A stretch of DNA of 64,000 nucleotides, from contig JBMOPW010000020.1 of the NCBI GenBank assembly GCA_049322915.1, positions 128,001 to 192,000 on the forward strand, written 5' to 3'. Numbering within the stretch: position 1 is the first letter of the stretch; each line of letters begins with the position of its first letter. The stretch is from Candidatus Zhuqueibacterota bacterium (GTDB lineage: Bacteria > Zhuqueibacterota > Zhuqueibacteria > Thermofontimicrobiales > Thermofontimicrobiaceae). The notes beneath the pieces are model-generated. The model saw only the letters and a program-made list of their open reading frames with translations. It had not been told where the DNA came from and made no database searches. A program made the position numbers and the translations under genes. Below are positions 9,274 through 35,628 of the stretch, one piece after another.

Positions 9274-9651
9274 CAGTGTGGAATGGGTATTTAACTTCGT
9301 AGAAATCCGGCAAGGATAGTGACAGAGAAAGTAGATAAATATTACGCTCTTATTTATTGATTAAAAGAAAAACATTACTGACAGCTCAGTTGCTTCTGCT
9401 TCTGTTGATCGATGCCGTCTGAAAACTGGTATTAACAATCCTGACTTAAAGCCTGTGCCACAAGTCAATATTCTGATTATATTACTGGTTGTCCTCTGCA
9501 TCAATTACATGCTACGCTTGGATTAGGTCATCATTACACCCTCCAGCACCTGACGGATGAGGTCGCTTGTTTAGGGTGAGAGTCGTTATTTGAACTGGTC
9601 TCTTTCTTTCTTCCACGCCCGAATTCTATCAAGCAGCTTCTTTCGTTCAGT

Positions 9652-10962
9652 TTATTTCATCTCTTGTCCCATCAGATGGGGCTCCATTTCTCTGTGGCAC
9701 ATGCGCGAATATTCCATCTGCTCAATTTCTTTCTCCAGCTCAATCGACTTCATCGTCAACTCCAGCGAAACCAGCACGTCTTTGGCCATAACCATGTGTT
9801 TGATGGCCTGATCCATTTCGCCCATTTCCGAGAGCATTTCAGCGTACTCCTGGCAACTATTGGCCAGACCTAATGGGATATCGAAATCCTGATAGAACCG
9901 GATGCTCTCCTCGTACCATTCCAGCGCGATGTTGTACTGACGATAGTTGCGAAAAATATGTCCATAAATGACAGCCACTTTGGCAAGTCCGATGGGATTT
10001 TTAATCTGGATGAGCCGCTTCAGTCCCTCGCTACAAAACTGCGCTGCATGGCGGTAATCCCCGACATGCAGGTAGAAAATGGCCTTGTTCAGATTGACGT
10101 AAGCCAGCAGTTGGTAATCGCCGTACGTGTTGCAGAGATCCACGCATTCGTTGAGGTAGTTGAGCGATTTCTCGTAATTGGATTTTTGAAGGTGGCTCAT
10201 GGCCAATTCATTGAGACTCTCGATCAGTCCCTGAATTTCATTGAGACTTTTAAAAGTCTCCACTGCCTTTTCCAGATAATCGATGCTGATGCCGCGCTCG
10301 TCCTTGATGCGGCTGACAACGCCAAGACGGTTTTTGAGATAGGCAGATTTATTAGGATTTTTAATTTCTTCAGCCAGGCGTAACGTCTGGGCATACAATT
10401 TTTGGGATAGATTGTATTCGCCTTTTTTAAAATACAAATCAGCCATCTCCGCTCGCACTTCGATGAGATTTGGTATGTCCTCTCTTTCCTGATAGTATTC
10501 ATACGTTTCACGGAAATAGAGTTCGGCAAGCTCCCAGCTCGCCAGTGCCGCGTGGGTCTTTCCAAGTTTGAACTTAATCTGAAATTGATACAATGCCAGC
10601 TTCAGTTCATCGGCGATGCTCAGCGTCCGAATATAGACAGCCTGGGCGCGATTGATTTCCCCGGCGATGAAATAGGTGTCACCCATACTAATCATTATTG
10701 GAATCTTATAGATATTTTCCCTGTGGTCTCCTTGATCCTGTAAAAATGACTCAAGAATGTCCGCGATCGGTTTTTGCTTGAGGGGCTCTGCCGGATTGGA
10801 ACTGCGGTTTTCGATGTCGTTGCAGATGTGCTGAATGCTGAAGATGATCTCCCTAATGTCTCTTTTTCGCTCTGGTGAAATATCTTTCAATAGTTTCCAT
10901 TGACTGTTGATGGTCATCAGCCTCTGCATGAATGAATCAATGATATCGTATTTATTTTTCAT
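9652..10962 (-). CDS. Cytoplasmic tetratricopeptide-repeat protein (MalT-like/TPR_12 repeats)
   Basis: About 8 repeats of ~40 aa (e.g. LGKTHAALASWELAELYF, LNELAMSHLQKSNYEKSLNYL) after a ~75-aa helical N-terminus; no signal peptide. Confidence 0.85.
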   Translation of the reverse strand: MKNKYDIIDSFMQRLMTINSQWKLLKDISPERKRDIREIIFSIQHICNDIENRSSNPAEPLKQKPIADILESFLQDQGDHRENIYKIPIMISMGDTYFIAGEINRAQAVYIRTLSIADELKLALYQFQIKFKLGKTHAALASWELAELYFRETYEYYQEREDIPNLIEVRAEMADLYFKKGEYNLSQKLYAQTLRLAEEIKNPNKSAYLKNRLGVVSRIKDERGISIDYLEKAVETFKSLNEIQGLIESLNELAMSHLQKSNYEKSLNYLNECVDLCNTYGDYQLLAYVNLNKAIFYLHVGDYRHAAQFCSEGLKRLIQIKNPIGLAKVAVIYGHIFRNYRQYNIALEWYEESIRFYQDFDIPLGLANSCQEYAEMLSEMGEMDQAIKHMVMAKDVLVSLELTMKSIELEKEIEQMEYSRMCHREMEPHLMGQEMK

Positions 10963-21285: not shown

Positions 21286-24200
21286 ATGCATCCATATATT
21301 ATTTACCTGTTATTTTTTTTTTCAGGGGCGACCGGATTAATTTACCAGCTTGTCTGGGCGCGAAAATTGGCGCTGCTGTTTGGCAATACCACCTACGCGA
21401 CCAGCGCCATTTTGACTGCATTTATGGGCGGTCTCGCCCTGGGCAGCTTTTTGATTGGGCGCTACGCGGATAGAATCAAACGGCCGCTGCGACTTTACGG
21501 GAAATTGGAACTGGGCATTGGCGCAGCGGCGCTGGCCATCCTTTTCCTTCTCATTCCCATTTCCGATGCAGTGTATGTCTGGCTGTTTCATCACATCGGC
21601 AGTAGCCCGCTTGTCATCAATATCTTCCGGTTCATTCTGGCCGTTTTCATCCTCATTATTCCCACAACCCTGATGGGCGGCACACTGCCTGTCATCAGCA
21701 AATATTTCATTCAGAAATCCGAGGAATTCGGCCGGGGCGTGGGACGACTGTACAGCTTCAACACATTCGGGGCGGTGATTGGCGCATTCATCACCGGCTA
21801 TTTTCTGATTGGCGCGTTCGGCGTGCGGACAACGCTGTGGCTGGCCATTGTTTTGAACCTGATCATCGGAGCGGTGGCTCTGTGGCTGGACGGCCGGAAG
21901 CCCCAGCATGTCCCTGAAAAACCGAAGAAATCCGATTCAGCAAAGTCACAACCGGCGCAGCCGACCGGGGACAAACTGAAAATCAGCGCCTACTCCGCGC
22001 CACAAGCCCGACTGATGCTCTGGTTATTTGGCCTAGCCGGCTTTGCTTCACTGGCCTACGAAGTTGTCTGGACGCGGGCATTGATTTTTTTCATCAGTTC
22101 AACGACCTATTCGTTCACTATTATTCTCACCACGTTTCTCGTCGGCATTGCCCTGGGCAGCGCCATCATGGCCAGGCCAACGGATCATTTGAAGCGATTA
22201 TTTTTCTGGTTCGGCGCGTTCGAACTGATCATCGCGATTGCGGCCATTGCCTCCGTGCCTCTGCTCGGGCATCTCAACGCCATTCAAAGCTATCTGGTGC
22301 AGCAGGTACAATCTCAAAACTGGACGCAAATTTCGCTGCTGCTGTTTCTATCCACCTTTCTGATTTTGATCATCCCGACGCTTTTCATGGGCGCTGTATT
22401 TCCCATCGTCAATCGAATTTATGTGGATAATCTGAAAACAGTGGGACAGGGCGTCGGCAAAGTCTATACGGCCAACACCATTGGCGCGATCCTGGGCTCG
22501 TTCATCTCCGGATTCATCCTGCTCCCGGTTTTCGGGATGAACGGCAGTATTCTCGCGCTCGGGCTGATTAATCTGGCCATTGGACTGGTGTCGTTATTCT
22601 CCGAGAGCGCGGGCCGACAGCGAAAACGGGCGACGTTCCTGTATGCCGGAATTCCCGTCCTCGCGTTTGCAGCGATATTGATTATCGGTTTCAGCACGAA
22701 ACCGCTTTTCATCAGCGGCGCCGGTTTCAAAGACACGCGGCTCCTGCATTACAAAGACACGGCTGCGGCGACGGTGAGCGTGCTTGAGAAAAAAGACCAG
22801 GTCAATATTTGGGGCAAAAATGTCCGCTATCTCAATGTCAACGGGCATAACACCGCCCATACCACGTACTCGGACATGATCATTCATAAGCTGCTGGCGC
22901 ATTTGCCGGTGCTGCTCACCCCTGATCCGAGGGAGGTGCTCGTCGTCGGCTTCGGTTTCGGGAACACGTGCAAATCGTTTCTGGAATATGACTTCATCAA
23001 AAAAGTCGACTGCGTCGAATTGGTCGAACACGAGAAAAAAACAGCCGCGTTTTTCGAAGATGAAAATAAGGGCGTTCTGCAGGATGACCGATTCCGCTTC
23101 ATTGTCTCGGACGGACGAAATTATATCCTGGCAGCGGATGCGACCTATGATATCATTTCAATCAATTCCGTGGACCCGAAGTTCAGTCCCACGCTGTATA
23201 CCGAAGAATTTTACCGACTTGTCAGAAAACGGCTGAATGCCAATGGACAGCTCGTCGCGTGGCTTCCGATTTACGGGATGAATCTCGATGAAGTGCGCGC
23301 GCTGGTGAAAAGCTTCATCGACGTATTTCCCGAAGCAGAACTGTGGTACAATAATCCGGAGCACCTGTTGCTGGTTGGCAAAAAAGGCAATTATCCCATC
23401 GACGTGGAATCGCTGAAGCATCGAATGATGAAGCCGCGAATTTGGAAAAGCCTGGAAGAAATTCATCTGAACGACCCGTATACTTTTTTAGCGAATTTCT
23501 TCTGCGGCCGGCAGATGCTGAGTAAATTCGCCGGCGATGTGCAGAGCCACTCCGACAATCACCCGGTTGTCGAATTCAGCCGGATTACATCCAAAGAGAT
23601 GATCCCTGAAGTGTATCGGGAACTGCTGAACTGCCGGGAGACCGTCCTGTTGTACTCCATGAATTTCGATGCGCTGGGTGAAACGGAGACGGTGCGCAAG
23701 CAAATCCTCAATTACGAACGGGAGATGAAAAATCTCATGGCAGCGTTTTTCAACTATCGGCTGTTCGCTGCCCGGCCTGAGGCGCAGGAGACGCTCGTTG
23801 AAATCATCGCGACCATGCAGAAAATCCTCAATGAAGAGCCGGCCAATGACTTTGCGCTGATGCAATACGTCGACCTCCTCAGCCACGGCGACATGGTGGC
23901 GAATCAGCGGTATTTCGATGCGGCCATTGCCATCGCCCCGAATTTCGCCAAGGCCTATGTGCTTTCCGGCCTCGCCCATGCAGCGAAGCAGGAATGGGAC
24001 CTGGCCCTGGCCAGCTACCAGCGCGCGCTCGCAATAAATCCGGCGTATTTTACCGCGAAGAACAATGCCGGTCTGATTTTGATTCAGCAACAGAAATGGG
24101 CTGAAGCGGAACAAATCTATCGCACGCTGCTCCAGGAAAACCCGGACGATAGCTTCGCTCATTCCACCATCGCGCAGGTGTATTACATGCTGGAAAACTA

Positions 24201-24399
24201 CGACGCCGCCATCCTGCACATGAAAATAGCGATTGAAACCCAGCCGGAACAGGCCAATCTCTATTTTAACCTGGGCCGGATGTATCACAAACAGGGACAC
24301 ATTCCGGAAGCGATTCAGGCCATGGAAGAAGGACTGAAGATTTCGCCCTACGATCAGCGCGCCATTCAGTTTCTGGAAGAATTGAAAAGAATGAAATAA
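21286..24399 (+). CDS. Fused multi-TM / spermidine-synthase-like SAM-binding domain / TPR protein
   Basis: About 13 TM helices with duplicated motifs (LIYQLVW..NTFGA and LAYEVVW..NTIGA), VLVVGFGFG, VDCVEL, DGRNYI, C-terminal TPRs. Confidence 0.88.
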   Translation: MHPYIIYLLFFFSGATGLIYQLVWARKLALLFGNTTYATSAILTAFMGGLALGSFLIGRYADRIKRPLRLYGKLELGIGAAALAILFLLIPISDAVYVWLFHHIGSSPLVINIFRFILAVFILIIPTTLMGGTLPVISKYFIQKSEEFGRGVGRLYSFNTFGAVIGAFITGYFLIGAFGVRTTLWLAIVLNLIIGAVALWLDGRKPQHVPEKPKKSDSAKSQPAQPTGDKLKISAYSAPQARLMLWLFGLAGFASLAYEVVWTRALIFFISSTTYSFTIILTTFLVGIALGSAIMARPTDHLKRLFFWFGAFELIIAIAAIASVPLLGHLNAIQSYLVQQVQSQNWTQISLLLFLSTFLILIIPTLFMGAVFPIVNRIYVDNLKTVGQGVGKVYTANTIGAILGSFISGFILLPVFGMNGSILALGLINLAIGLVSLFSESAGRQRKRATFLYAGIPVLAFAAILIIGFSTKPLFISGAGFKDTRLLHYKDTAAATVSVLEKKDQVNIWGKNVRYLNVNGHNTAHTTYSDMIIHKLLAHLPVLLTPDPREVLVVGFGFGNTCKSFLEYDFIKKVDCVELVEHEKKTAAFFEDENKGVLQDDRFRFIVSDGRNYILAADATYDIISINSVDPKFSPTLYTEEFYRLVRKRLNANGQLVAWLPIYGMNLDEVRALVKSFIDVFPEAELWYNNPEHLLLVGKKGNYPIDVESLKHRMMKPRIWKSLEEIHLNDPYTFLANFFCGRQMLSKFAGDVQSHSDNHPVVEFSRITSKEMIPEVYRELLNCRETVLLYSMNFDALGETETVRKQILNYEREMKNLMAAFFNYRLFAARPEAQETLVEIIATMQKILNEEPANDFALMQYVDLLSHGDMVANQRYFDAAIAIAPNFAKAYVLSGLAHAAKQEWDLALASYQRALAINPAYFTAKNNAGLILIQQQKWAEAEQIYRTLLQENPDDSFAHSTIAQVYYMLENYDAAILHMKIAIETQPEQANLYFNLGRMYHKQGHIPEAIQAMEEGLKISPYDQRAIQFLEELKRMK

Positions 24400-24441: not shown

Positions 24442-24473
24442 CCGGGATGTCACCGTCCCGGGTTTGCTTTTTT
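24442..24473 (+). terminator. Intrinsic terminator
   Basis: CCGGGAT/GTCCCGG stem followed by GTTTGCTTTTTT. Confidence 0.6.
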
Positions 24474-24600: not shown

Positions 24601-25128
24601 ATGAAAAAATATTCCACATATTCCGATGAGAAGCTCACCAGCGCTGTGAAATCAGCAGATGCTGCTGCATTCAAGGAACTCTATTACCGCTATTACAAGC
24701 CGCTCCATTCCTTTATTTGTCTTCGCACGAATTCGACCGAACTGGCGCCGGATTTCATTCAGGAAGTTTTCACACGCCTGTGGCAAAATCGTGACAAGCT
24801 CATTCCTGAAAACTCTGTGAAAGCCTACCTCTACAAAATCGCTAACAATCTGATCATTGATTTTTTCCGTAAAAAAAATACAGAACGAACTTATCTGGCT
24901 GAAAAATCTTCTGCAACAATCCTGCAAACCGATAATTTGCTCGAATCCGTATCTGACATAAATTTCGCCATTCAAAATCTCCCTGAAAATTGCCGCATCG
25001 TTTTTATGCTGAGCCGCTACCAGAACCTCACATATCTTGAAATTGCCAAAGCGTTGAATATATCCATCAAAACCGTGGAAGCCCGAATGAGCCAGGCGCT
25101 GAAGATTTTACGAACTGAATTGCTATAA
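24601..25128 (+). CDS. ECF RNA polymerase sigma-70 factor (FecI-like, Bacteroidetes-type)
   Basis: AFKELY.RY, DFIQEVF..LW, KAYLYKIANN, LPENCR.VF.LSR, EIA..LNISIKTVE; adjacent to FecR. Confidence 0.93.
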   Translation: MKKYSTYSDEKLTSAVKSADAAAFKELYYRYYKPLHSFICLRTNSTELAPDFIQEVFTRLWQNRDKLIPENSVKAYLYKIANNLIIDFFRKKNTERTYLAEKSSATILQTDNLLESVSDINFAIQNLPENCRIVFMLSRYQNLTYLEIAKALNISIKTVEARMSQALKILRTELL

Positions 25129-25189
25129 GCAATCGTTGAATCTTCGAGTCCGGACGGGAAAATTTCTTTCACTTTTCAAAAAATATTTA

Positions 25190-25216
25190 TAGGGTTTTCT
25201 TTGGTTCAATCGTATT
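25190..25216 (+). promoter_or_regulatory. Possible ECF-type promoter upstream of fecR
   Basis: TAGGGT...CGTATT bipartite motif shortly before fecR; the CGT resembles an ECF -10 element. Confidence 0.3.
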
Positions 25217-25252
25217 ATAAGTGAACAAGATATCAAAGGAAAATGAATTATC

Positions 25253-26278
25253 ATGCAGAACGAAAAATTTCACAACCTCTGTATTAAATCCATTGCCGGC
25301 GAAATTTCATCCGCAGAACAAAAGGAATTGGAACACTGGTTGAACGCTTCAGCGGAAAATCGAAGCGGCTACCAGGAAATTCAACAGATATGGCAAAAGG
25401 CTGAAATCATCTCTATTGCCGGGAATTTACAAATCGATGAACAATGGGAGCGACTCAGTCGTGACCTCGGCTTAATGCACGCGGAGAAGCATCGAAAACT
25501 ATCGCCTGCCAGCTCCGGGATTCGGGTAAGAATGAAACGATTTTTTAAGCCCGGGCTCAGGCCAGCTTACGCTATAGTAGGGGTGGCGATAATCGTGTTG
25601 ATCGCGTTGGTTTCAATCCAAAAACAGGAGGTAATTCCTGTGCTGCAGGAAATTGTAACCAATAATGGAGAGACCACTGAATGCATGTTTTCCGATGGTT
25701 CGACCGTGCGCCTCAACAGCGGCAGTTCAATTCAGTTTTCGAGTGTCTTTTCCGACACGGCTCGGCAGGTATTTTTGAAGGGCGAAGGTTTTTTTGCCAT
25801 TGCAAAAGAAAACCGTCCATTTGTTGTGAATACTGAAAGTGCAAAAACTGTGGTGCTTGGCACGGAATTCAATGTGTGGGCGCGGGGGAGCGAAACCAGG
25901 GTTATTGTAAAAAGCGGAATAGTGCGCTTTTTGTCCTTAAAAAATAAAGAGGATGTCGTTTTACTTGAGAATCAAATGAGTTGCCTGGATGAAAAAGCTG
26001 CGCCGACATCGCCCAAAACAGTGGATGCGGATTTTCTGTTAGGCTGGCTGAAAGGCAGATTGGTATTCGAGCGAACTCCCATACTAGAGATTATCGCTGA
26101 ACTTGAACGTCGATACAATATTTCCATCGTGATGGACAATGTGGATGTGAAAAATGAAACGATCACAGCAAGTTTCGATTCGTCGTCTTTGGAGACTATT
26201 TTTGCTTCACTTTGCCTGACGCTGGGTATTCAATATAAAATTGAACAGGCCCGGGTTACGCTTTTCAAAACATTATAG
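25253..26278 (+). CDS. fecR: FecR-family anti-sigma factor
   Basis: ELEHWL..S.EN, a single TM, DGSTVRLNSGS, R.VFLKGEGFF, VLGTEFNV, W.KG.LVF..TP..EI..ELER.Y. Confidence 0.93.
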   Translation: MQNEKFHNLCIKSIAGEISSAEQKELEHWLNASAENRSGYQEIQQIWQKAEIISIAGNLQIDEQWERLSRDLGLMHAEKHRKLSPASSGIRVRMKRFFKPGLRPAYAIVGVAIIVLIALVSIQKQEVIPVLQEIVTNNGETTECMFSDGSTVRLNSGSSIQFSSVFSDTARQVFLKGEGFFAIAKENRPFVVNTESAKTVVLGTEFNVWARGSETRVIVKSGIVRFLSLKNKEDVVLLENQMSCLDEKAAPTSPKTVDADFLLGWLKGRLVFERTPILEIIAELERRYNISIVMDNVDVKNETITASFDSSSLETIFASLCLTLGIQYKIEQARVTLFKTL

Positions 26279-26327
26279 AATAAAATTATAACGATTGGCA
26301 TCTTGCAGAGTTTTTGGAATCTCACTT

Positions 26328-27470
26328 ATGCAAAAAATGATATCACAATTGATAATCGTTTTATTTCTAATACAATTTGGGTCAAAAGTCGTTCTTGGGC
26401 AAGCGGCAGTGGACTCAGCGCGGGTTACGCTGTATTGTTCAAATCTGCCGTTGAGAACGGTGCTGGAAGAAATCTCCAGGCAATCGCGAACACGTTTTGT
26501 TTTCAACGATAGGTTGGTCGAATCCAAAGAGGTCACCTGCAATATTGAAAACGTAACTGTTGAAGTCGCGATTCACCAGGTACTTAAAAATCTGGACATT
26601 GGCTATCGGATGTTTCCGTGCAGGACTGTTGCCCTGTTTACAAAAATACAGATATCCGGAGTGCTTGTGAAAAAAAAGAAAGAGAATGAAATTTGTGCGC
26701 CCATTCAACCGCCGACGCTTCGGGTGAAAATTAAACCGCATTATCCGCTCAGCGCCCAGAAGGAGGGACTTGAGGGGCGAGTAAAGCTCGATCTTCTCGT
26801 TGACAAAAACGGCAAAGTTGCCAAAGCCAAAGTGACGCGGTCAGCCGGGGCCGCGCTTCTTGATTCTACAGCTGTAGAGTATTCGAAACAATTGAAATTT
26901 TATCCGGCAACTCAAAAAGGCCAACCGACCGATGTATGGTTAACCTGGAACGTAAATTATAAATCCCAACAGACCAGTTTGCTGGAATCGAAATACATTG
27001 ACAGAATTCAAACGCTCCACCGGCTTTCCTGCGAGTACAACGATTCAACACGCAGCAGGATTCTCGATGCCATCGTTTCAACACACAAAGTGTTAATAGA
27101 CTATTTTCTCGAGCGCCCCAATCTCAGTTATAATGAAGTTGTTAAAGAAGTCATTCTGGATGAAATTTACCAAAAATGGAAAGCGTACTGGAATGACTGG
27201 CAACTGCATTTTGTTGTATTCCAGGATTTTCTTTTACGCTATCCGGATTCCAAATTTTCCACTCTCGTAATTGAGGAACTTGTGCATCATTTTGAGCAGG
27301 ATTTGTCTATAATAAAAAAGTCTGCGGGAAATGATGAGGCTCAAAAAAGCAAAATCGAACACCTCGAAAACAGATTGATAGATTTCATGAAAGCAAAATA
27401 TCGACAAACTGATAAGGAATTTATTTCAGATCAGGGAGAGAATGTCAAACTCCCTGATCTCGTTAATTAA
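26328..27470 (+). CDS. Exported STN + TonB_C + helical-domain fusion protein
   Basis: Signal peptide; STN (LPLRTVLEEISRQSRTRFVFN...VLKNLDIGY); TonB_C (YPLSAQKEGLEGRV...LLD..A...KFYPA.QKG); C-terminal helices including FLLRYPDSKF. Confidence 0.85.
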   Translation: MQKMISQLIIVLFLIQFGSKVVLGQAAVDSARVTLYCSNLPLRTVLEEISRQSRTRFVFNDRLVESKEVTCNIENVTVEVAIHQVLKNLDIGYRMFPCRTVALFTKIQISGVLVKKKKENEICAPIQPPTLRVKIKPHYPLSAQKEGLEGRVKLDLLVDKNGKVAKAKVTRSAGAALLDSTAVEYSKQLKFYPATQKGQPTDVWLTWNVNYKSQQTSLLESKYIDRIQTLHRLSCEYNDSTRSRILDAIVSTHKVLIDYFLERPNLSYNEVVKEVILDEIYQKWKAYWNDWQLHFVVFQDFLLRYPDSKFSTLVIEELVHHFEQDLSIIKKSAGNDEAQKSKIEHLENRLIDFMKAKYRQTDKEFISDQGENVKLPDLVN

Positions 27471-27560
27471 ATTTTTTCGAATTCATGTGAGTGAAGATGT
27501 GTTATGTCAGCCAGTGGTTTAGTAGAAATATAAATGACAAGCTAAAATTTCAGCACCTAT

Positions 27561-27586
27561 GTGGACGGTCGCGACCGTCCACTACA
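27561..27586. repeat. REP-like palindrome
   Basis: Perfect 22-bp palindrome GTGGACGGTCGCGACCGTCCAC followed by TACA, giving a CTAC end as in GTAG-family REPs. Confidence 0.7.
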
Positions 27587-27687
27587 GATATAACAAAATA
27601 TCGAATATAGTGCACATGTTTTCAACTCGTCATTCTTATTAACAATTCCTATAATTCTATCCTGCGTATAAAATTATCGGAGGTGTA

Positions 27688-30531
27688 ATGAAAAAGAATA
27701 GAATTTCATGTTGCGTTTTGCTAACGATTTTATTTGCGCAGATTTCACTTGGAGCCGATTTTACAGTGCGCGGAAGGGTGACAGATTCGCAGACCGATGC
27801 CCCGCTTCCCAAAGCAAATGTCATGATAGAAGGAACTTCCCTGGGAACGATCTCAGATGATGCCGGTCGTTTTACTCTGAAAATTCCCAACCCAGGGACT
27901 TATGTCCTTCAGGTCAAATACATCGGATATAAGAAATACAGGCAGTCGCTAAACTTTTCGTCCGATCGAATTGTGGAGGTGAATATTGCCCTGGTACCCA
28001 CTGTCATTTCCAGCCAGGGAGTGACGGTTACGGCGAAAGCTGATGTGAACAGGGCTATGGAGCGGAAAACGCCGGTGGCGTTCACTAAACTGGACGTGGT
28101 TGAAATACAGAGAAACTACACCACAGGCGATCTGCCGGAGCTCATTCAGGATGTGCCTGGCGTTTGGACTTCCAGCGCCGGTCTTGGCGAATCGGAAATT
28201 ATAGTCCGTGGTTTTACCTCCGACAAAGTGCGTTTTATGATTAATGATATTCCCATGAATGAGCCGGAGGACAACCAGGTTTACTGGTCGAACTGGGCAT
28301 CGCTTTCCAGCACAGCACAATCCATCGAAGTGCACCGCGGTCCCGGTTATTCGCTGTACGGGCCGGCGGCGTTTGGCGGCTCGGTTCACATCGAAACCAT
28401 GGGTGTCGCTTTGGTACCGGGTTCGATATTTCGAGTTTCCAGCGGTGTTTTTCAGCGACTTGGTATTAGCAACGGGATGAACGCCGGCCGTGTGTTCAAT
28501 CCCGAAGTTCCGGGAGAGATGACCGAAGCGACAAATGCGATAAATTATACCTATTCACTCAGAATGAATTCCGGTCCGCTTATGAAAGGGAAACTGAATG
28601 TATGCGCATTTCTGGAATATAAAACCGGCGATTCCTATCTTTATGGGACAACGTACGACGGCTACTCTTTTGGTCTCGAAGCAGAGAGTCTGTTGCGCCA
28701 GCACCGACTTCGCTTCAGCTTCTTCATTTCACCTCAATCGCATAACCAGGCCTTTGCTCTGCAGGACATCGATTTGCTGGATTCCATTGGCCGTGAATAC
28801 AACCGGAAAGATCACAGTTACCAGGAAAATTATTATTCGAAACCATTCTGGTCGTTGAAACACGAATGGACTATCTCAGATAAGCAAATTTTGGTGAGCA
28901 GTGTTTATTATACTATTGGAAAAGGCGCCGATCAAACGCTGGTGAATGATGTGTTTGATGTGAACACTGGTGCTGTCGAATTTCAGCCCGTTAATACTGG
29001 CACAACGCTGCAAGCGTTCGGAAAACATGCTGCATTTTTGTATGAAAAATTTGGCCTGTGGTGCACCGATTTTATGCCGTTGAATGAAGATTGGTCTTTG
29101 TCCGATCCGTACAATCAAAACAGCTACAAGCAAACATTAGTCGGGAGATCCGGCGTCAATCTTTTCACTGAAAATCATGATCATAGCTGGCAGCGGAGAA
29201 ATCGCCGAGATCACAATCAATTGGGGATTTACAGTTACTATAAAAGAGACATTGGAGCAAAAATTCAGGTGATTGCCGGAGGCGAGGGACGCGTCTGGCG
29301 TGGCCATCGTGAAGCAGAGATCTGGTATTTGAAGTTCGGGCCAGGCATCACGTTCAGGGGCCTGGATGTTCACAATATCGTCGGCGAAAATGTGCAGACC
29401 GACCAATTGCAATCGCTATATAATTATAATACAGAAGTAGATAATTTATCGGTATTCTCTCGCGTTAATTTAAATCCGTTCGAGGATTTTACGTTGCAGG
29501 CGGGCGGGCAATTTGCCTTCACAAACATGAAAGTTATTGAAAATCCAATTCGTTTTTTGGATATCGGCAGTTTTCTTTTTTTTAAGGACTCCTATCGCAC
29601 TTCAGCGGATCAGATCAATGAAGATGGCTCACTAAAATTCACTGATGGCGACTATAAAAGATCATTCAACTTTTTTACGCCATGGCTGGGGTGCAACTAC
29701 AATATAACAGAGACAATGAATGCATTTTCCAACTACGCGACATCAAAAAAAGAACCTGCTATTCTGGACTGGTATGATTTCGCAGAAGGTCCCATGTTGG
29801 CAGAGGCAAACGGGAGGAAATTGCAGCCGGAAACAGCAACCAGCCTCGAAGTCGGAGTGGGGTATAAAACATTACTTTTGGAATCGAAATTGAATTGTTA
29901 TTACACGCGCTACAGCGACAAGATTGAATCGGTCATCGATATTAACGAGCAGCGGCGAACCATGAACGCTGGCCGCGCTGTTTTCCAGGGATTTGAGTGG
30001 GAATTCAAGGGGAAGATGATGGATTTTGATTTTTCCGGCACGGCAACAATTTCCCGAAACCGCTGGATTTCCATGAATGTTGATTCAATCTTCGGCGCAG
30101 CGGCAACAGATGTGAAGGGTAAGGTTGTGCCTTTTGCACCGGAGCGAATGTTTTCAGCCTGCTTCGGATATCGCTTCGAACCATTTCCTAGTCATAATTA
30201 TCATTTTGCATTCCGTTTGAATTATTGGGACGAGTACTACGGCACTTATACGAACGAACATATCGATGCCAAAGGATATGTAAAAAAAGCCAAATTGCCT
30301 TATTTTCTCGACATCAGCGGTCAGTTAAGTTTTACGAAGATAATGAAAAAAGTCGATCTCACGTTTCGGCTCGATGTGAATAATCTACTCAACCGTCGAG
30401 ACAATTTCATGCGCGCGCAGTACACAATCGATTACACCCGAAATGATATTCTTGCCGGAAAATATAACTGGTATGTGTTGCAAGCGCCGCTTTTCAATGT
30501 GTTTCTGACAGGCGAGGTTGCCATTCATTAA
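27688..30531 (+). CDS. TonB-dependent receptor (CarboxypepD_reg N-terminus, no STN)
   Basis: VRGRVTD..PLPKANV, plug VRGF...INDIPMN...YWSNW...RGPG.S.YG...GGSV, LQPETATSLEVG, DVNNLLN. Confidence 0.93.
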   Translation: MKKNRISCCVLLTILFAQISLGADFTVRGRVTDSQTDAPLPKANVMIEGTSLGTISDDAGRFTLKIPNPGTYVLQVKYIGYKKYRQSLNFSSDRIVEVNIALVPTVISSQGVTVTAKADVNRAMERKTPVAFTKLDVVEIQRNYTTGDLPELIQDVPGVWTSSAGLGESEIIVRGFTSDKVRFMINDIPMNEPEDNQVYWSNWASLSSTAQSIEVHRGPGYSLYGPAAFGGSVHIETMGVALVPGSIFRVSSGVFQRLGISNGMNAGRVFNPEVPGEMTEATNAINYTYSLRMNSGPLMKGKLNVCAFLEYKTGDSYLYGTTYDGYSFGLEAESLLRQHRLRFSFFISPQSHNQAFALQDIDLLDSIGREYNRKDHSYQENYYSKPFWSLKHEWTISDKQILVSSVYYTIGKGADQTLVNDVFDVNTGAVEFQPVNTGTTLQAFGKHAAFLYEKFGLWCTDFMPLNEDWSLSDPYNQNSYKQTLVGRSGVNLFTENHDHSWQRRNRRDHNQLGIYSYYKRDIGAKIQVIAGGEGRVWRGHREAEIWYLKFGPGITFRGLDVHNIVGENVQTDQLQSLYNYNTEVDNLSVFSRVNLNPFEDFTLQAGGQFAFTNMKVIENPIRFLDIGSFLFFKDSYRTSADQINEDGSLKFTDGDYKRSFNFFTPWLGCNYNITETMNAFSNYATSKKEPAILDWYDFAEGPMLAEANGRKLQPETATSLEVGVGYKTLLLESKLNCYYTRYSDKIESVIDINEQRRTMNAGRAVFQGFEWEFKGKMMDFDFSGTATISRNRWISMNVDSIFGAAATDVKGKVVPFAPERMFSACFGYRFEPFPSHNYHFAFRLNYWDEYYGTYTNEHIDAKGYVKKAKLPYFLDISGQLSFTKIMKKVDLTFRLDVNNLLNRRDNFMRAQYTIDYTRNDILAGKYNWYVLQAPLFNVFLTGEVAIH

Positions 30532-30570: not shown

Positions 30571-31515
30571 ATGAAATTTAAGAAATTATTATTCGCTGCT
30601 CTGTTTTTCTTGTTGTTCTTTTCTTCCGCGTTGTTGTCGCAGGACGAAATCTCTCACCTGAAAGTTACGGGTAAACTGGGAATTCTTTTGGCTGCGGATA
30701 GGGGTGCGGAAGATGGTATTGAAATTGATTGGGTTTACGACATGAAACGAATTGTAATGAACGATACCTTTCATGTCGGAACAGCGGTTGTGTCCAGAGT
30801 AGAACCTAAAATGTGTTATTTGAAACCATTCTTTGTGAGTCCGTTCAGGGCACGGGAGAATGATGATTTATTTAAAAATGTGGCTTTGACCGAAAGTCTC
30901 ATGCGCACCAAATCGAATGATTTCTGGAACGAAATTCAGAGCTGCAATGCGGGTGTTGGCAACCTTGATTTTATTGATGGTAGGAATTTCAGGAACTGTG
31001 TTATCACCATGAAGGACGGGGTAAGCGTCAAAGTGAAAGATCTCATTGTAAAAGCGAATGAAGGAATATTAATACCGCAAAAATACACAACCAAGCGGGA
31101 GCTTGTGCCGATTGAGGGTATTCAAAGTATCAAGACTTCCACAGGTAACTATGCATTATTTGGCGCGGTGATTGGGGCTTCGATTGGCGGAGGAGCAGTG
31201 CTGCTGTTGCATCAGAGCAATGTTGAATTGGACACTACTTATTACTTCGTAAGTTCGCTGAATCAGTACGGCAACATCATCGGCTGGTCCAAGATGATGA
31301 AGGTAGTAAAAAAAGACCATCGGCTACCAATGTTCACGCGGATTGCCATGGTAAGCGGCGGTTATCTTTTAGGCTCAATCATCGGATACGCGTTCAAAGG
31401 TAACTATAAGGAAATCTATTCATCGGGAAAGTGGGATGGAAAAATGTCCTTGAATTGGAATATTACCCAGCCCTGGCCGGATGCGATTGGTATCAACCTC
31501 AATCTTTGTTTTTGA
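30571..31515 (+). CDS. Hypothetical exported protein with two Gly-rich hydrophobic helices
   Basis: Signal peptide, good RBS, GAVIGASIGGG and GGYLLGSIIG segments, C-terminal GINLNLCF. Confidence 0.75.
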   Translation: MKFKKLLFAALFFLLFFSSALLSQDEISHLKVTGKLGILLAADRGAEDGIEIDWVYDMKRIVMNDTFHVGTAVVSRVEPKMCYLKPFFVSPFRARENDDLFKNVALTESLMRTKSNDFWNEIQSCNAGVGNLDFIDGRNFRNCVITMKDGVSVKVKDLIVKANEGILIPQKYTTKRELVPIEGIQSIKTSTGNYALFGAVIGASIGGGAVLLLHQSNVELDTTYYFVSSLNQYGNIIGWSKMMKVVKKDHRLPMFTRIAMVSGGYLLGSIIGYAFKGNYKEIYSSGKWDGKMSLNWNITQPWPDAIGINLNLCF

Positions 31516-31572
31516 AATTTAAAGCATATTCACGTTTGGGCAGAATGTCGAATTTAAGCCAGGAGTCCAAAG

Positions 31573-32463
31573 ATGAGAAGGATAGTACTGATTATTTTAT
31601 CACTGTTCATTTCAGTTCTTTTCATGCAATGCACAAGCTATACCATCAATGTAGCAACAGTGCCGGCAAAGAAAGTAGAGATATATGTGAATGATGAATA
31701 CAAAGCGACGACAGATGAAAATGGCACGGCCACCATGAAAATTGATGGCGCATCGTTTGAGGAAATGCAGCTTGTTGAAGCGAAGGCTGATAATTACTAC
31801 GGCTTTGTAAGTGTCAGTTATGGCAAAGGCGTTTCACCCGAGACGCAAAATGTATATTCGGTTGTCAATCCCAACCCAAAAGAAGGTAAGCAGAAAGCAA
31901 AGATGCATTACAACATTGTTTTCATGATCCCTGAAGGTGAAACAACTCAGCCACGGTTTGTTGAATCAAAAATTGCAGCGATAAAAGAAGACACATCGTT
32001 TCTGGATGAATCTGAACTCGATTCACGGTTTGAGCAATGCGCGTACATCGCCACAAAGAAAGAAAAGGATGATTTCGAGAAGCTTTCATTTGAAGAGAAA
32101 AAAATATTCTGGCGTAATTTCTGGCAGAAACGGGATTTGGACTTGAGCACGGAAATTAATGAATTTCAAATTCAGTATTTTGATCGTGTTCGCAAGGCCA
32201 ATAAAGAATTCTCTGTGCAAAAAAAAGAAGGGTGGGAAACCGATCGCGGAAGGGTCCTCATTCTTTATGGAGACCCTGATGAAGTTGAATTATTCCCCCA
32301 ACTAATGGAAACCAAAGCGTACGAAATTTGGCGCTATTACGGACTGCAAGGGGGCATTGAATTTGTGTTCGTCAGCTTACGCGGAGGACGCGACATGCGG
32401 CTGGTTCATTCCACAGCGCAAAATGAATTGTTCGATTCCAACTGGGAGCGCTGGTTGAAGTGA
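31573..32463 (+). CDS. GWxTD-domain lipoprotein with PEGA-like N-terminus
   Basis: Lipoprotein-like FMQC; FW..RD...NE...R...AN.EF...GWETDRGRV...YG.P...E.W.Y. Confidence 0.88.
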   Translation: MRRIVLIILSLFISVLFMQCTSYTINVATVPAKKVEIYVNDEYKATTDENGTATMKIDGASFEEMQLVEAKADNYYGFVSVSYGKGVSPETQNVYSVVNPNPKEGKQKAKMHYNIVFMIPEGETTQPRFVESKIAAIKEDTSFLDESELDSRFEQCAYIATKKEKDDFEKLSFEEKKIFWRNFWQKRDLDLSTEINEFQIQYFDRVRKANKEFSVQKKEGWETDRGRVLILYGDPDEVELFPQLMETKAYEIWRYYGLQGGIEFVFVSLRGGRDMRLVHSTAQNELFDSNWERWLK

Positions 32464-32645
32464 GTTCGTTGTGAAATGGGCAAAAATCCTTCGTACTGGG
32501 ATTCCAAATCACAAAAGATTTGGTGGGCACTGCCTTGAAAAAACGATTTTCATTAGAAGAAATTGTCTGAGCCGATCTTTCGATTCCTGCTAAGTTACAG
32601 TATAATTTTAAAAGCGTAAAACAATATTTTTAACTTGAGGCAAGG

Positions 32646-33398
32646 ATGAATAAAAAGATTAATCACGTACTTTTCATTTTATCATTCACGTGCCTATCTC
32701 ATTTTTACTGTGATTTTGTCAGGCTGACAGAGGAAGAAATCGTGAAGATAAATTATCTGCCTGTCTTTAATTTTGTTACCATAGAAATTCCTCAGAAAAT
32801 GGTGACTTCTACAGATTCAATGGCGCAGAGACTACTGAAATTATTGGAATTTCATAATAGCATGCAGAATTACGTTGAACTTTTGGAGATGCCATTAGAT
32901 AGCATGGATGCCGGGCCGCCTTGGGAAAAAAAGATTAAACTGGAGAAGGGTGTGCTTACTACACTTTATTTGTATTATGAACAGGATATGGAAAGCTACG
33001 TTTGGAATGTTACAAAATCGGGTTATGACTCCCTTTCCGAAGTGACATTTGATGACTGGCTCAGTGTCATTGCTGAATATGAGCCAGCCAGTGGTTCGGA
33101 ATATCTTTCGGTATTTGATAAGAACACTGATTGGTATAAAGTACGGATGTCGTTTAATTATTCAAGCGCCGGGAAAATGATTCTCTTGCTTTATACGACC
33201 TATCTGGTTGATCTTCCAGGACATTTCGTGATCGAATATTTCGATGAAGTCCAAACTATAAATACCGAGTTTCACGCTAATGGGCATGTTGCGTATTTGG
33301 AAGGTTTCATTTATTTCGATATTTATTGGAATGAACAGGGCAACGGATACTGGCGGCTCACAGAAGAAGGGGAGATCGCTGAATCAGGTACATGGTGA
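32646..33398 (+). CDS. Hypothetical protein, probable lipoprotein
   Basis: 250-aa ORF with RBS and signal-like N-terminus ending near Cys; no family recognised. Confidence 0.7.
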   Translation: MNKKINHVLFILSFTCLSHFYCDFVRLTEEEIVKINYLPVFNFVTIEIPQKMVTSTDSMAQRLLKLLEFHNSMQNYVELLEMPLDSMDAGPPWEKKIKLEKGVLTTLYLYYEQDMESYVWNVTKSGYDSLSEVTFDDWLSVIAEYEPASGSEYLSVFDKNTDWYKVRMSFNYSSAGKMILLLYTTYLVDLPGHFVIEYFDEVQTINTEFHANGHVAYLEGFIYFDIYWNEQGNGYWRLTEEGEIAESGTW

Positions 33399-33455
33399 TA
33401 TTGTTCAGACAGTTTATGTGCGTCGGAGACTTCATATACCTGGCGTATTTATCGA

Positions 33456-33656
33456 ATGAACAAGATAATTTTCCTATTTGTCTCAACAGCTATTGTCCTA
33501 TTCGCGTCCGATTAGCCAACGCCACAGGAATTTATCCTGAAACAGGGTTGCTTTATTCAGCACTATCTTTTCGATTTTATTGCAAGACCTGCTGCACTTG
33601 CTGCTTCAGCGGATTCCGTGTCCCAGACAATTGTTGTTAGCCTGCATTATTCATAG
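33456..33656 (+). pseudogene. Possible remnant of a secreted protein gene
   Basis: MNKIIFLFVSTAIVLFASD, then in-frame TAG (33513), then PTPQEFILKQG...; signal-peptide-like start. Confidence 0.35.
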
Positions 33657-34142
33657 TATTTTTAAAGGAGGCTGGCTAACCTGAATGGTGCTCTTTTTAG
33701 AATAAACGTACAAAAACTGAGTTTCAAAATTGCTTAACCTTTAGCTAATTGAAAATCTGAATGTTGACTCAAATTCTGAGCATGTTCATGAATAATTCAG
33801 GTTAGAATTCAAAAATAAAATTCCACTATTGACTATACCGCTCTTTTTGAGGTTGAGAAATAGGAAGTAACATGAAATTATCAATGGAAGAAAATACGGG
33901 CCAATGACAACGGTGTATAGGTGACAACTTATCCGATATCATTTCAATATATTTGCAGAATTCATTGCAGCGGAACGGATACAAACTCCGGGAAACAGGT
34001 CGAAAATTGGCTTTTTTTTAGAACAAGTCAGAGAGTCTGATGTTGTTATAATCCAGGGGGAGCAGAGATTGGTATATGACTGTCAATTAGTACTTTTGAG
34101 CAGAAATCAATTTGTGTGCACCAAATAATTTGAAAAATCATA

Positions 34143-34171
34143 TTGCTTTATTGTAACGGAATCATTACATT
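34143..34171 (+). promoter_or_regulatory. Putative sigma-70 promoter
   Basis: TTGCTT-N17-TACATT about 35 nt before the GTG start. Confidence 0.5.
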
Positions 34172-34206
34172 GAGCCGTGTAAACGAACATCACGAAAGGA
34201 GCTACC

Positions 34207-35628
34207 GTGAGAACAGGCAGGACTCAAACCACGTTTCGATTCATCCGGTGGATCGGAGTGAGTCTTTTTTTCATTCTTCTTCCGATGAATTCGGCAGATG
34301 CCCAGGTTGAGAAAGATGGATTTGTGCTGGACTTCAACCGATTCAGCCTTAAAAATGGGGATTCATTTGTCGAGATTTATTACTCCATTCCGAGGCAAAA
34401 ATTGAACTATCAGGCAATCAGCGATGGGCATCAGGCGGGTGGGCTCATTCAAACCTTTATTAAAATGGGCGATAAAGCCATGCTGGCCGATAGCCTGGTC
34501 ATCACCGATGTCACCAAATCGCTTTCGGAAATTACTCCAACCCAGAAATTCACCGAGCAGACCAATATTCAATTATCCCCGGGCCGCTATGAAATTGTCA
34601 CGCGGTTCATCGACCTCGTCTCGAAAAAAATGACTCTGGTGACAGATAGCATTCGCATCTCTGCCCGGGCGACGATGCCGGCCATCAGCGATATTCAATT
34701 GGCCAGTACCCTCAGCCGGCAGCCGAAAGCGGAGAACAAATTCGATAAAAATGGACTGCGGGTCGTCCCCAATCCATCGCGCGCGTACGGCTCCGGCTTT
34801 TCGAAACTCTTCTATTATGCGGAAATATACGCGCTGGAATTCCAAGGCGCCGGAAGCGATTCCACGTTTTGTGTGAATTATGCGGTGCTGGATGTCTCCG
34901 GCGCTGTTGTGAAGCAAGTGCCCGGCAATCATCAGACAAAACCGGGCAGTTCGGCTGTCATTCACGGTTCCTTTGATCTGGAAGGATTGTCCAGCGGTTT
35001 CTACAGTTTCCAAATCGAGGTCACGGACGATCGGAATGGCCGAACTGCGGTGCAGCAGAAGGAATTTCAGATTTTCAGGCCCGGCGATTTTCTCGTTTCC
35101 CAGACGGAAAGTCCTAAGCCCATAGAAGAGACCGGCAAAGTCGATGATGAATTTGCATTGATGAGTGAGAAGGAGATCGATGACTATTTTCTGATGGTGA
35201 AATACATAGCCCTGAAGGATGAAAAGAAACTGTTCGATAATCTCGACCTCAATGGCAAACGCAATTTTATGAATAACTTCTGGCAGCAGCGGGATCCTGA
35301 GCCGAGAACTGCCATCAATGAGCGGAAGAAAGAATACCTGGAGTGCATGGGTCGCGCCAATGAACAATTCTCCATGGGCCAGAAAATGGGGTGGAAGACG
35401 GATCGCGGTCGCGTGCTGCTGGTATATGGTCATCCCGACGAAATCGAGAGTGTCCCTTCCGACGGGAGCACAAAGTCGTACGAGATCTGGCATTATTACT
35501 CTGTGGAGGGAGGGGTCATCTTTGTGTTTGTCGATATTATGAGAATCAAAGATTACCGGCTGGTCCATTCCACGCATCGCAATGAGATTCAGGAGCCAGG
35601 GTGGCAGGAGCGTTATCTGGGCTTATAA
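34207..35628 (+). CDS. GWxTD-domain exported protein
   Basis: Signal peptide, beta-sandwich domains (ISDIQLA, PNPSR, YYAEIY), FWQQRDP...GWKTDRGRV...YG.PD...YEIWHY. Confidence 0.9.
   Translation: MRTGRTQTTFRFIRWIGVSLFFILLPMNSADAQVEKDGFVLDFNRFSLKNGDSFVEIYYSIPRQKLNYQAISDGHQAGGLIQTFIKMGDKAMLADSLVITDVTKSLSEITPTQKFTEQTNIQLSPGRYEIVTRFIDLVSKKMTLVTDSIRISARATMPAISDIQLASTLSRQPKAENKFDKNGLRVVPNPSRAYGSGFSKLFYYAEIYALEFQGAGSDSTFCVNYAVLDVSGAVVKQVPGNHQTKPGSSAVIHGSFDLEGLSSGFYSFQIEVTDDRNGRTAVQQKEFQIFRPGDFLVSQTESPKPIEETGKVDDEFALMSEKEIDDYFLMVKYIALKDEKKLFDNLDLNGKRNFMNNFWQQRDPEPRTAINERKKEYLECMGRANEQFSMGQKMGWKTDRGRVLLVYGHPDEIESVPSDGSTKSYEIWHYYSVEGGVIFVFVDIMRIKDYRLVHSTHRNEIQEPGWQERYLGL

Follow-up and report, generated by a model that had tools for sequence, protein, structure and literature searches.

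Textbook accounts present classical cell-surface signaling as a device of three parts, with the signaling domain borne by the transporter. In FecA-FecR-FecI, FoxA-FoxR-FoxI, and PupB-PupR-PupI, the STN domain is the N-terminus of the transporter and lies just before the TonB box. Martens and colleagues reportedly described trans-envelope signaling in the polysaccharide utilization loci of Bacteroides as consisting of a SusC-like transducer, an anti-sigma factor, and an ECF sigma factor. One exception to the three-part device has been described, VreA, whose partner and signal have not been known since 2009 as far as the accessible portions of the sources go. Described that year in the PUMA3 system of Pseudomonas aeruginosa, VreA is exported and mainly soluble, and its location is probably the periplasm; it combines an STN-like with a TolA/TonB-C-like domain and acts with the sigma factor VreI and the anti-sigma factor VreR, according to the available part of the report (Llamas et al. 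2009, PMC2729926). Its C-terminal domain was detected by SUPERFAMILY only and was modeled on TolA at 9.3% identity (PMC2729926, same part). Deletion of vreA left expression of the regulon unchanged under the single condition tested, according to the available part of a later study (Quesada et al. 2016, PMC4971064).

We analyzed a locus within a 64,000-nucleotide stretch of a Candidatus Zhuqueibacterota genome, hereafter the window. An ECF sigma factor, a FecR, an adaptor composed of STN, TonB_C, and helical domains, and a TonB-dependent receptor are encoded here in that order, all on the + strand. This gene order and domain content were claimed by the original prediction and are borne out by the open reading frames, Pfam, and fold matches. 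The same prediction held that no characterized example of such an arrangement was known, a statement that VreA contradicts. The features of the locus are as follows.

24442..24461, + strand: terminator-like hairpin after the upstream gene (8-pair stem with 6 GC pairs, T-rich tail; consensus match only)
24601..25128, + strand: ECF sigma factor, Bacteroides-expansion type (Pfam Sigma70_r2 and r4_2; TIGR02985)
25253..26278, + strand: FecR-type anti-sigma factor (Pfam DUF4880 at residues 15-45, FecR at 133-225, FecR_C at 269-336)
26328-27470, + strand: adaptor gene (exported STN + TonB_C + helical protein)
26328..26399, + strand: predicted cleavable signal peptide, adaptor residues 1-24 (by eye; variable N-terminus in 39 relatives)
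26415..26651, + strand: STN domain of the adaptor, residues 30-108 (relatives' Pfam matches, fold, BLASTP, family HMM)
26700..26969, + strand: TonB_C domain of the adaptor, residues 125-214 (Pfam, 7.2e-19; fold; profile matches to PDB TonB chains)
26967..27428, + strand: C-terminal all-helical domain of the adaptor, residues 214-367 (common to the TonB_C-helical lipoprotein family)
27561..27582, no strand: perfect 22-nt palindrome within the 217-nt spacer ahead of the receptor gene
27688..30531, + strand: TonB-dependent receptor without STN (signal peptide, CarboxypepD_reg-like extension, Plug, barrel)
28012..28035, + strand: TonB-box-like segment QGVTVTAK, receptor residues 109-116, ahead of Plug and after the N-terminal extension
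30571..31515, + strand: 314-aa exported protein with no family match (kept with the cluster in L004, E 6e-41 to L004:7116-8060)
31573..32463, + strand: GWxTD-domain protein (domain search; comparison with relatives' loci)
32646..33398, + strand: 250-aa protein with no family match (weak conservation in L004, E 1e-09)
34207..35628, + strand: second GWxTD-domain protein (kept beside the adaptor in L004 and L072)

The terminator-like hairpin suggests that the sigma gene opens a new unit. Within the cluster, a consensus scan found a single sigma-70-like match (27627-27655) preceding the receptor gene. Upstream regions were compared by eye for the sigma genes of 20 loci and, in L004 and the window, for the genes of the cluster; together with a consensus scan, this yielded no nameable shared ECF-type promoter motif. 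No mention of GWxTD was found in the literature searched.

The sigma factor matches Sigma70_r2 (5.7e-14) and r4_2 (3.3e-15) in Pfam and is of the FecI-like, Bacteroides-expansion type (TIGR02985 at 138.8 bits, cut-off 126.4), the subfamily also found in Bacteroides SusC-type signaling. The FecR consists of an N-terminal anti-sigma part, one membrane helix at about residues 104-122, a FecR domain (4.3e-17), and an STN-like FecR_C domain (1e-16), carried in this genome by this FecR only. Its residues G203-T204 are invariant across 20 orthologs. The locus resembles the Fec, Fox, and Pup systems in having an ECF sigma factor and a FecR-type anti-sigma factor with an STN-like C-terminal domain. It differs from them in that the STN belongs to a protein of its own, predicted to be soluble, in which it is joined to TonB_C; the transducer has none.

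VreA (PA0674) is the closest counterpart. Both are exported proteins lacking barrel and plug, in which a short linker joins an N-terminal STN to a TolA/TonB-C-like domain at the C-terminus, and both are encoded with an ECF sigma factor and a FecR-type anti-sigma factor; this likeness is one of described domain architecture, not of compared sequences. Several differences stand out. The order here is sigma-FecR-adaptor, whereas PUMA3 reads vreA-vreI-vreR in an operon under PhoB control with the receptor-like gene first. The C-terminal domain is here an unambiguous Pfam TonB_C (E 7e-19), and in the adaptor a helical domain of 150 residues is added to it. The host phylum belongs to the FCB group, and an STN-less receptor adjoins the adaptor.

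The STN assignment of the adaptor needed several lines of evidence. In the Pfam check that the original prediction had proposed, TonB_C scored clearly, but the STN of the window copy fell below threshold (E 0.0034; 17.6 bits where 28.4 are required). We take this weak match as real because the domain was matched by Pfam in all five close family members (best E 4.3e-6), because the fold matches, because BLASTP finds substantial identity, and because a classical receptor served as positive control. A structure model built from a 54-row alignment (mean pLDDT 88.2; an earlier model from 5 sequences was poor, at 65.5) places residues 30-110 onto the PupB signaling domain with Z 10.8 and an rmsd of 2.2 Å over 81 residues, and onto PupA and FecA with Z 10.3 and 10.2. 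Residues 25-113 share 34% identity over 90 residues with the STN of a classical receptor of the same phylum (BLASTP, E 7e-12). Scored with an HMM of the adaptor STN, the STNs of receptors reach 56-60 bits and the FecR_C domains of the cognate FecRs 18-28 bits. These comparisons identify the adaptor STN as receptor-type.

The presence of TonB_C raises the question of whether the adaptor is an ordinary TonB paralog, with an uncleaved N-terminal anchor coupled to ExbB/ExbD, that energizes the adjoining receptor. The TonB_C domain is strong and shares both fold and Pfam family with that of TonB, and relatives are named "TonB family protein" in databases. However, TonB_C is where the likeness ends: the adaptor has neither a conserved membrane anchor nor a Pro-rich rod and carries a predicted signal peptide and an STN instead. 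Its N-terminus reads MQK, followed by 12 hydrophobic residues and VLG|QAA; the first 24 residues are not conserved in 39 aligned relatives, and the consensus at their end, AQ, is signal-peptidase-like. A cleavable-looking signal peptide, as opposed to a TonB anchor, had been predicted, and this pattern agrees with it. The absence of a Pro-rich linker had likewise been anticipated: residues 106-128 are rich in Lys and Glu, and in the structure model a folded STN would occupy the position of the spacer. Moreover, the gene always stands beside FecR, and STN-less relatives have lipoprotein-type N-termini. An ordinary TonB is thus already disfavored, and we consider it highly improbable.

The remainder of the adaptor comprises TonB_C and a helical tail. 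Residues 125-214 of the model align with TonB C-terminal domains (Z 12.5 and 12.2), and profile and structure comparisons both match TonB chains whose structures were determined with a TonB box bound. Seven residues (Y139, P140, G150, G162, L178, D179, and P193) are invariant in all 39 aligned members. By build, the adaptor belongs to a TonB_C-helical lipoprotein family, in which TonB_C is followed by a helical domain with the motif W..W...L.F.VF.DF; its residues 122-361 match many proteins of 260-300 aa, with E down to 1e-52. The lipoprotein-type N-termini of the STN-less members were read from their sequences by eye. For the helical tail, a structure-atlas search gave weak TPR/BamD-like leads only (scores 0.75, TM under 0.56), and structural alignment gave helical-bundle and designed-repeat matches at Z of about 7-7.5, below the meaningful level for helical folds; neither yielded a convincing fold or a family.

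The original prediction also proposed that the adaptor relays a signal to FecR in trans. A complex model of the adaptor STN with the FecR C-terminal domain scored 0.85 in three runs, and the best of three controls scored 0.00; among complexes of solved structure 116 of 157 attain the mark for this score, and among mismatched pairs 2 of 215. The runs share 100% of their contacts, and the pLDDT of the partner is at least 84. The predicted interface joins FecR 302-312 and 318-325 to adaptor 43, 56-64, and 94-105, and it holds invariant or near-invariant residues (FecR T303, T305, A306, and F308; adaptor F57 and D61). The adaptor STN is thereby predicted to pair with the FecR C-terminal domain as PupB does with PupR. 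Since the similar PupR:PupB complex has been solved (6OVK), the score may be recall of that structure and not prediction. The model supports binding of the adaptor STN to the FecR C-terminal domain, and with it the proposed contact in trans, to the extent that its score does not reflect memory of 6OVK. A free FoxA signaling domain binds the FoxR C-terminal domain without signal and blocks FoxR proteolysis, as stated in the available part of that work (PMC11637429).

The receptor next door shows the converse absence. Its Pfam domains are CarbopepD_reg_2 (27-114), Plug (126-231), and barrel (477-900), a build of extension, Plug, and barrel shared with Bacteroides SusC-type transducers. In the classical form of the latter the STN lies ahead of the extension, as in our positive control from the same phylum (L026; STN 78-126, CarboxypepD_reg 132-218); in the window receptor Pfam finds none even at E<=0.1. 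The mature chain thus begins with CarboxypepD_reg, as had been predicted. The same holds genome-wide: among the 41 ORFs with a Plug domain, no STN is found by Pfam or by a family-specific STN HMM run over all genome ORFs, the only other STN match being a pilus secretin. The segment QGVTVTAK, a putative TonB box by its position and consensus, includes T115 and A116, both invariant in a five-receptor alignment.

These features suggest how the locus might work. FecR would hold the ECF sigma factor at the membrane, and edge-strand pairing would join the adaptor STN to the periplasmic STN-like domain of FecR. This contact would shield FecR from periplasmic proteolysis, as the FoxA/FoxR and PupB/PupR pairs suggest by analogy. 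TonB_C and the helical tail would dock on an envelope partner, for which the TonB box of the downstream STN-less receptor is the likeliest candidate here. Ligand would expose the TonB box, TonB_C would engage it, and the STN-FecR contact would be altered or broken. FecR would then be degraded, and the freed sigma factor would transcribe the receptor/GWxTD cluster. We give about an even chance to the reading of the locus as a barrel-less, VreA-type cell-surface signaling module with the receptor TonB box as its likeliest partner. The unaltered regulon expression on deletion of vreA counts against this reading. As a tentative proposal on the doubtful side, a free-standing adaptor would sense when an STN-less SusC-type transporter exposes its TonB box and turn this into FecR/ECF signaling.

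The distribution of the adaptor bears directly on the choice of partner. We surveyed 22 adaptor loci, drawn from six families of the window's phylum, two Bacteroidota genomes, and one metagenome contig. A FecR homolog lies upstream on the same strand in 22/22, directly adjacent in 20; in L004 and L078 a single ORF intervenes. Of the 22, 21 also have a sigma gene, and in the remaining one, L060, the contig stops before that position is reached. Because the synteny is kept in all 22 loci, a chance arrangement is excluded, and the fusion beside FecR is no one-off. The survey thus upheld the expected ECF/FecR neighborhood but not the expected STN-less receptor, which appears in the fetched flanks of only 4 loci. 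The statement that the STN has moved off "the" receptor is therefore not a rule for the family. In the other 18 no receptor was seen in the flanks, several of which are on short contigs (6-9 kb) where absence is only partly assessable. With 41 receptors spread over 6.25 Mb, our own arithmetic gives a probability of roughly 1 in 10 that one of them lies by chance no farther than +/-8 kb away, and 4/22 is thus not impressive. The case for a receptor partner rests instead on orthologous receptors kept in two separate clades, the window with L004 and L077 with L078. All four of these adjacent receptors lack STN and have a conserved xxV(T/I/V)VTA segment.

A receptor-independent envelope sensor is an alternative reading. 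The STN would again guard FecR, but TonB_C and the tail would bind a target other than a TonB box, such as a co-encoded lipoprotein, another outer-membrane protein, or peptidoglycan, and the receptor would be a regulon member or merely a neighbor. Besides the 18 loci without a receptor in their flanks, the adaptor is directly followed, in 14 of 20 loci, by a conserved lipoprotein of 208 aa that contains two DxxxDG-like loops, and the partner and signal of VreA are still not known after 15 years, by the available parts of the two reports (PMC2729926, PMC4971064). However, a search with one query found no homolog of this lipoprotein in the window's genome. The TonB_C of the adaptor is as canonical as the genome's true TonB domains (72.1 bits in an own-genome search in which the other matches above cut-off range from 28.3 to 76.2), and it matches the TonB chains solved with TonB boxes. 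Close STN-less TonB_C-helical relatives also occur in receptor loci: in 4 of 5 examined, the flanks show a TonB-dependent receptor, encoded about 3.5 kb upstream of the relative and on its strand. We regard a receptor-independent sensor as possible but rather doubtful.

Alternatively, the adaptor could be a constitutive damper or decoy. It would do no more than stabilize FecR, or would occupy TonB boxes in competition with TonB, and would thereby set a threshold for signaling or transport without carrying a signal itself. Overproduced free signaling domains do block cell-surface signaling in P. aeruginosa, according to the available part of one study (PMC11637429), and the adaptor gene has the orientation of sigma and FecR. 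Yet an STN alone would suffice for a pure stabilizer, and TonB_C is strictly conserved across the 39 aligned members, which speaks for the importance of its binding function. This explanation seems unlikely.

Other searches help to delimit the family. Scanning metagenomes returned two loci, L003 and L004; scanning genome contigs with the family alignment returned two matches only, both TonB_C-only; and a word-based search at shorter lengths returned no homolog. The two Bacteroidota loci stand among glycoside hydrolase genes. In one relative, L074, FecR is fused straight to TonB_C; we dropped this fusion as a marker of a family, as it is a singleton among the 120 FecR relatives listed. The works found in a literature search on STN/TonB_C fusions with FecR or ECF nowhere describe the FCB-group family, and such a fusion is not mentioned in the available parts of a B. 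thetaiotaomicron TonB preprint and an ECF reclassification paper.

Finally, the adaptor family shows that the barrel-less form of cell-surface signaling is conserved outside Proteobacteria, with a textbook TonB_C domain. It also fits the recent evidence that a free signaling domain can guard an anti-sigma factor. The retention of the adaptor beside STN-less receptors in two clades offers a concrete candidate partner, the receptor TonB box. If the signaling reading is true, any transporter could be wired to a sigma factor without a signaling domain of its own, which would explain ECF regulation fed by transporters that lack STN. The same logic would name the missing partner class of Pseudomonas VreA.

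An ORF listing gave four ORFs, all in one orientation and with the coordinates of the original prediction. Pfam and NCBIfam searches bore out its order of sigma factor, FecR, adaptor, and STN-less receptor. As predicted, the receptor begins with a CarboxypepD_reg-like domain, and Pfam detected no STN in it even at E ≤ 0.1. Overall, the observation is confirmed.

Features of the gene cluster (window coordinates)
24442–24461, terminator-like hairpin closing the upstream gene
24601–25128, ECF sigma factor of the Bacteroides-expansion subfamily (NCBIfam TIGR02985, 138.8 bits against a cut-off of 126.4)
25253–26278, FecR-type anti-sigma factor (Pfam FecR at residues 133–225, FecR_C at 269–336)
26328–27470, adaptor, 380 aa (Pfam TonB_C, E 7.2e-19; STN below threshold, 17.6 bits against a cut-off of 28.4)
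27688–30531, TonB-dependent receptor (CarboxypepD_reg-like extension from residue 27, then Plug, then barrel)

The spacer preceding the receptor gene holds a 22-nt perfect palindrome (GTGGACGGTCG/CGACCGTCCAC; window 27561–27582) without a T-tail, and the whole spacer folds better than its shuffles (z −2.7). Window 21286–24399 encodes a 1037-aa protein with TPR repeats at its C-terminus, joined to an MFS-like membrane portion and a domain resembling spermidine synthase.

The STN of the adaptor, subthreshold in Pfam, is genuine, being upheld by relatives, fold, and BLASTP. All five close relatives examined match Pfam STN (best E 4.3e-6). In a structure model built from a 54-row alignment (mean pLDDT 88.2), residues 30–110 superpose on the PupB signaling domain (VIA-align Z 10.8, rmsd 2.2 Å over 81 residues) and on those of PupA (Z 10.3) and FecA (Z 10.2), while residues 125–214 superpose on TonB C-domains (Z 12.5 and 12.2); Foldseek agrees on both folds. 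Against L026, a receptor from this phylum with the classical built-in STN, BLASTP aligns the adaptor STN over 90 residues at 34% identity (E 7e-12). The STN is of the receptor type, since its HMM scores 56–60 bits on receptor STNs versus only 18–28 bits on cognate FecR_C domains. The adaptor N-terminus, judged by its sequence, resembles a cleavable signal peptide; it is variable in 39 relatives save for an AQ consensus at its end. The linker is rich in Lys and Glu, and the model places a helical domain at residues 214–367, for which structure comparison gave no convincing known fold.

The genome of the window has 41 Plug ORFs. Its Pfam STN matches are only the adaptor and a 457-aa type IV pilus secretin (contig C7, 290021–291394; L081:5021–6394) adjoining PilM-like and PilX-like genes, and its only FecR_C is that of this FecR. 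Therefore, the adaptor is the sole candidate STN partner. The proposed STN–FecR contact was modeled with FecR residues 125–341 and adaptor residues 25–112, an alignment being supplied for each chain. The complex scored 0.85 across three runs, a mark attained by 116 of 157 solved complexes versus 2 of 215 mismatched pairs; the best of three controls scored 0.00. Contacts were identical between runs (100%), with partner pLDDT of at least 84. The modeled interface sets FecR 302–312 and 318–325 against adaptor 56–64 and 94–105, and includes the positions that each family conserves best. This model supports binding of the adaptor STN to the C-terminal part of FecR, although the score may reflect likeness rather than the behavior of this pair, because a PupR:PupB complex has been solved (6OVK).

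The STN-TonB_C protein with FecR and sigma is a conserved module, not a one-off. In 22 adaptor loci (the window, L004, L017, L057–L073, L077, and L078), whose flanks were searched with the window's proteins, a same-strand FecR lies upstream of the adaptor in every case. It immediately adjoins the adaptor in 20, a single ORF intervening in the metagenome locus L004 and in L078. All loci but L060, whose contig stops too early, also have a sigma gene (21 of 22). These loci span six families of the window's phylum, a second phylum, and one metagenome contig. The intervening ORF of L004 (2550–3296, 248 aa) aligns with a TonB-dependent receptor (E 2e-09) solely in its barrel (positions 615–817 of 913) and looks like a receptor remnant.

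An exhaustive search of representative proteins found 44 at E ≤ 1e-30 to the adaptor. By matched ranges they form three architectures: STN-TonB_C-helical (∼370 aa), STN-TonB_C (∼220 aa), and TonB_C-helical (∼270 aa). Databases name the STN-TonB_C proteins merely "TonB family protein." A profile of the short STN-TonB_C proteins, run over 167 genomes of the window's phylum (the unpublished G158 and G162 counted solely as non-holders), found one ORF spanning both domains in 19 genomes, the window's included. Among 401 Bacteroidota genomes sampled, the fusion occurs in just 2, with at most seven candidates scored per genome. Bacteroidota locus L078 carries the halves split after FecR (8322–9853, minus strand), TonB_C-helical (282 aa) and then STN-TonB_C (224 aa). 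In genome G103, a single 479-aa chain contains FecR, FecR_C, and TonB_C, with no second STN (L074:3065–4504, minus strand), followed by a TonB_C-helical gene and then a sigma gene; this fusion is a singleton among the 120 FecR relatives listed.

A receptor beside the adaptor is the exception in this family. With seven receptor queries, true receptors turned up around the adaptor at four loci (the window, L004, L077, L078) out of 22, within the flanks retrieved; several contigs are short, so some absences are not fully assessed. All four begin with CarboxypepD_reg, lack STN, and keep an xxV(T/I/V)VTA segment ahead of Plug. The predicted STN-less neighbor thus holds wherever a receptor was found, but not as a general rule. 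The receptors of the window and L004 are orthologous (E 2e-147 and 2e-185) and both have the 314-aa and GWxTD genes nearby, ordered differently; L077 and L078 share a receptor/T9SS-protein/sigma/FecR layout amid glycoside hydrolases. GWxTD-domain genes accompany the adaptor in three loci (window 30571–35628, L004:4708–8060, and L072:6570–7982); the term was not met in the literature searched. The gene immediately after the adaptor encodes, at 14 loci (L057–L067 and L069–L071) out of the 20 in the first flank search, a conserved ∼208-aa lipoprotein without a Pfam family (L057:1909–2562 in that locus). Its two DxxxDG-like loops, AIDKEQDGxxD and ADGxLN, recall calcium-binding loops, and one query found no homolog in the window's genome.

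At L003, L018, L019, and L021, a TonB_C-helical protein that lacks STN and has a lipoprotein-like N-terminus is encoded ∼3.5 kb downstream of a 1100-aa receptor. ORFs of ∼730 and ∼350 aa without Pfam families precede it, and the loci are sugar-utilization-like. The STN-less protein is an uncharacterized accessory of such transport loci.

We favor TonB_C as the putative sensing end of the adaptor because its residues are strictly conserved, because TonB chains with structures solved in complex with TonB boxes are among its matches, because four of its five closest STN-less relatives sit in receptor loci, and because the G103 singleton joins FecR_C straight to TonB_C.

The original interpretation is partly supported: the FecR neighborhood is borne out and the model favors the STN–FecR contact, whereas general receptor adjacency fails. 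It knew of no characterized example, but VreA of P. aeruginosa is one (Llamas et al. 2009, PMC2729926). In their account, a short linker connects an STN-like N-domain (modeled on FpvA) to a TolA/TonB-C-like C-domain in VreA, which carries a signal sequence, is largely soluble, and probably resides in the periplasm. It works with sigma VreI and anti-sigma VreR, and they proposed that its C-domain touches an unknown partner in the outer membrane. Deleting vreA had no effect during phosphate starvation in the work of Quesada et al. (2016, PMC4971064). According to Wettstadt et al. (2024, PMC11637429), the free FoxA signaling domain binds the FoxR C-domain without signal and stops FoxR proteolysis, and they propose that the signaling domain is cut off the receptor. 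The invariant G203-T204 of the window's FecR domain is a Gly-Thr pair similar in type to the site where FoxR cleaves itself (PMC11637429). A barrel-less partner of FecR with STN-like and TonB-C-like domains is a kind already known, if poorly understood, and the window's system is a variant of it.
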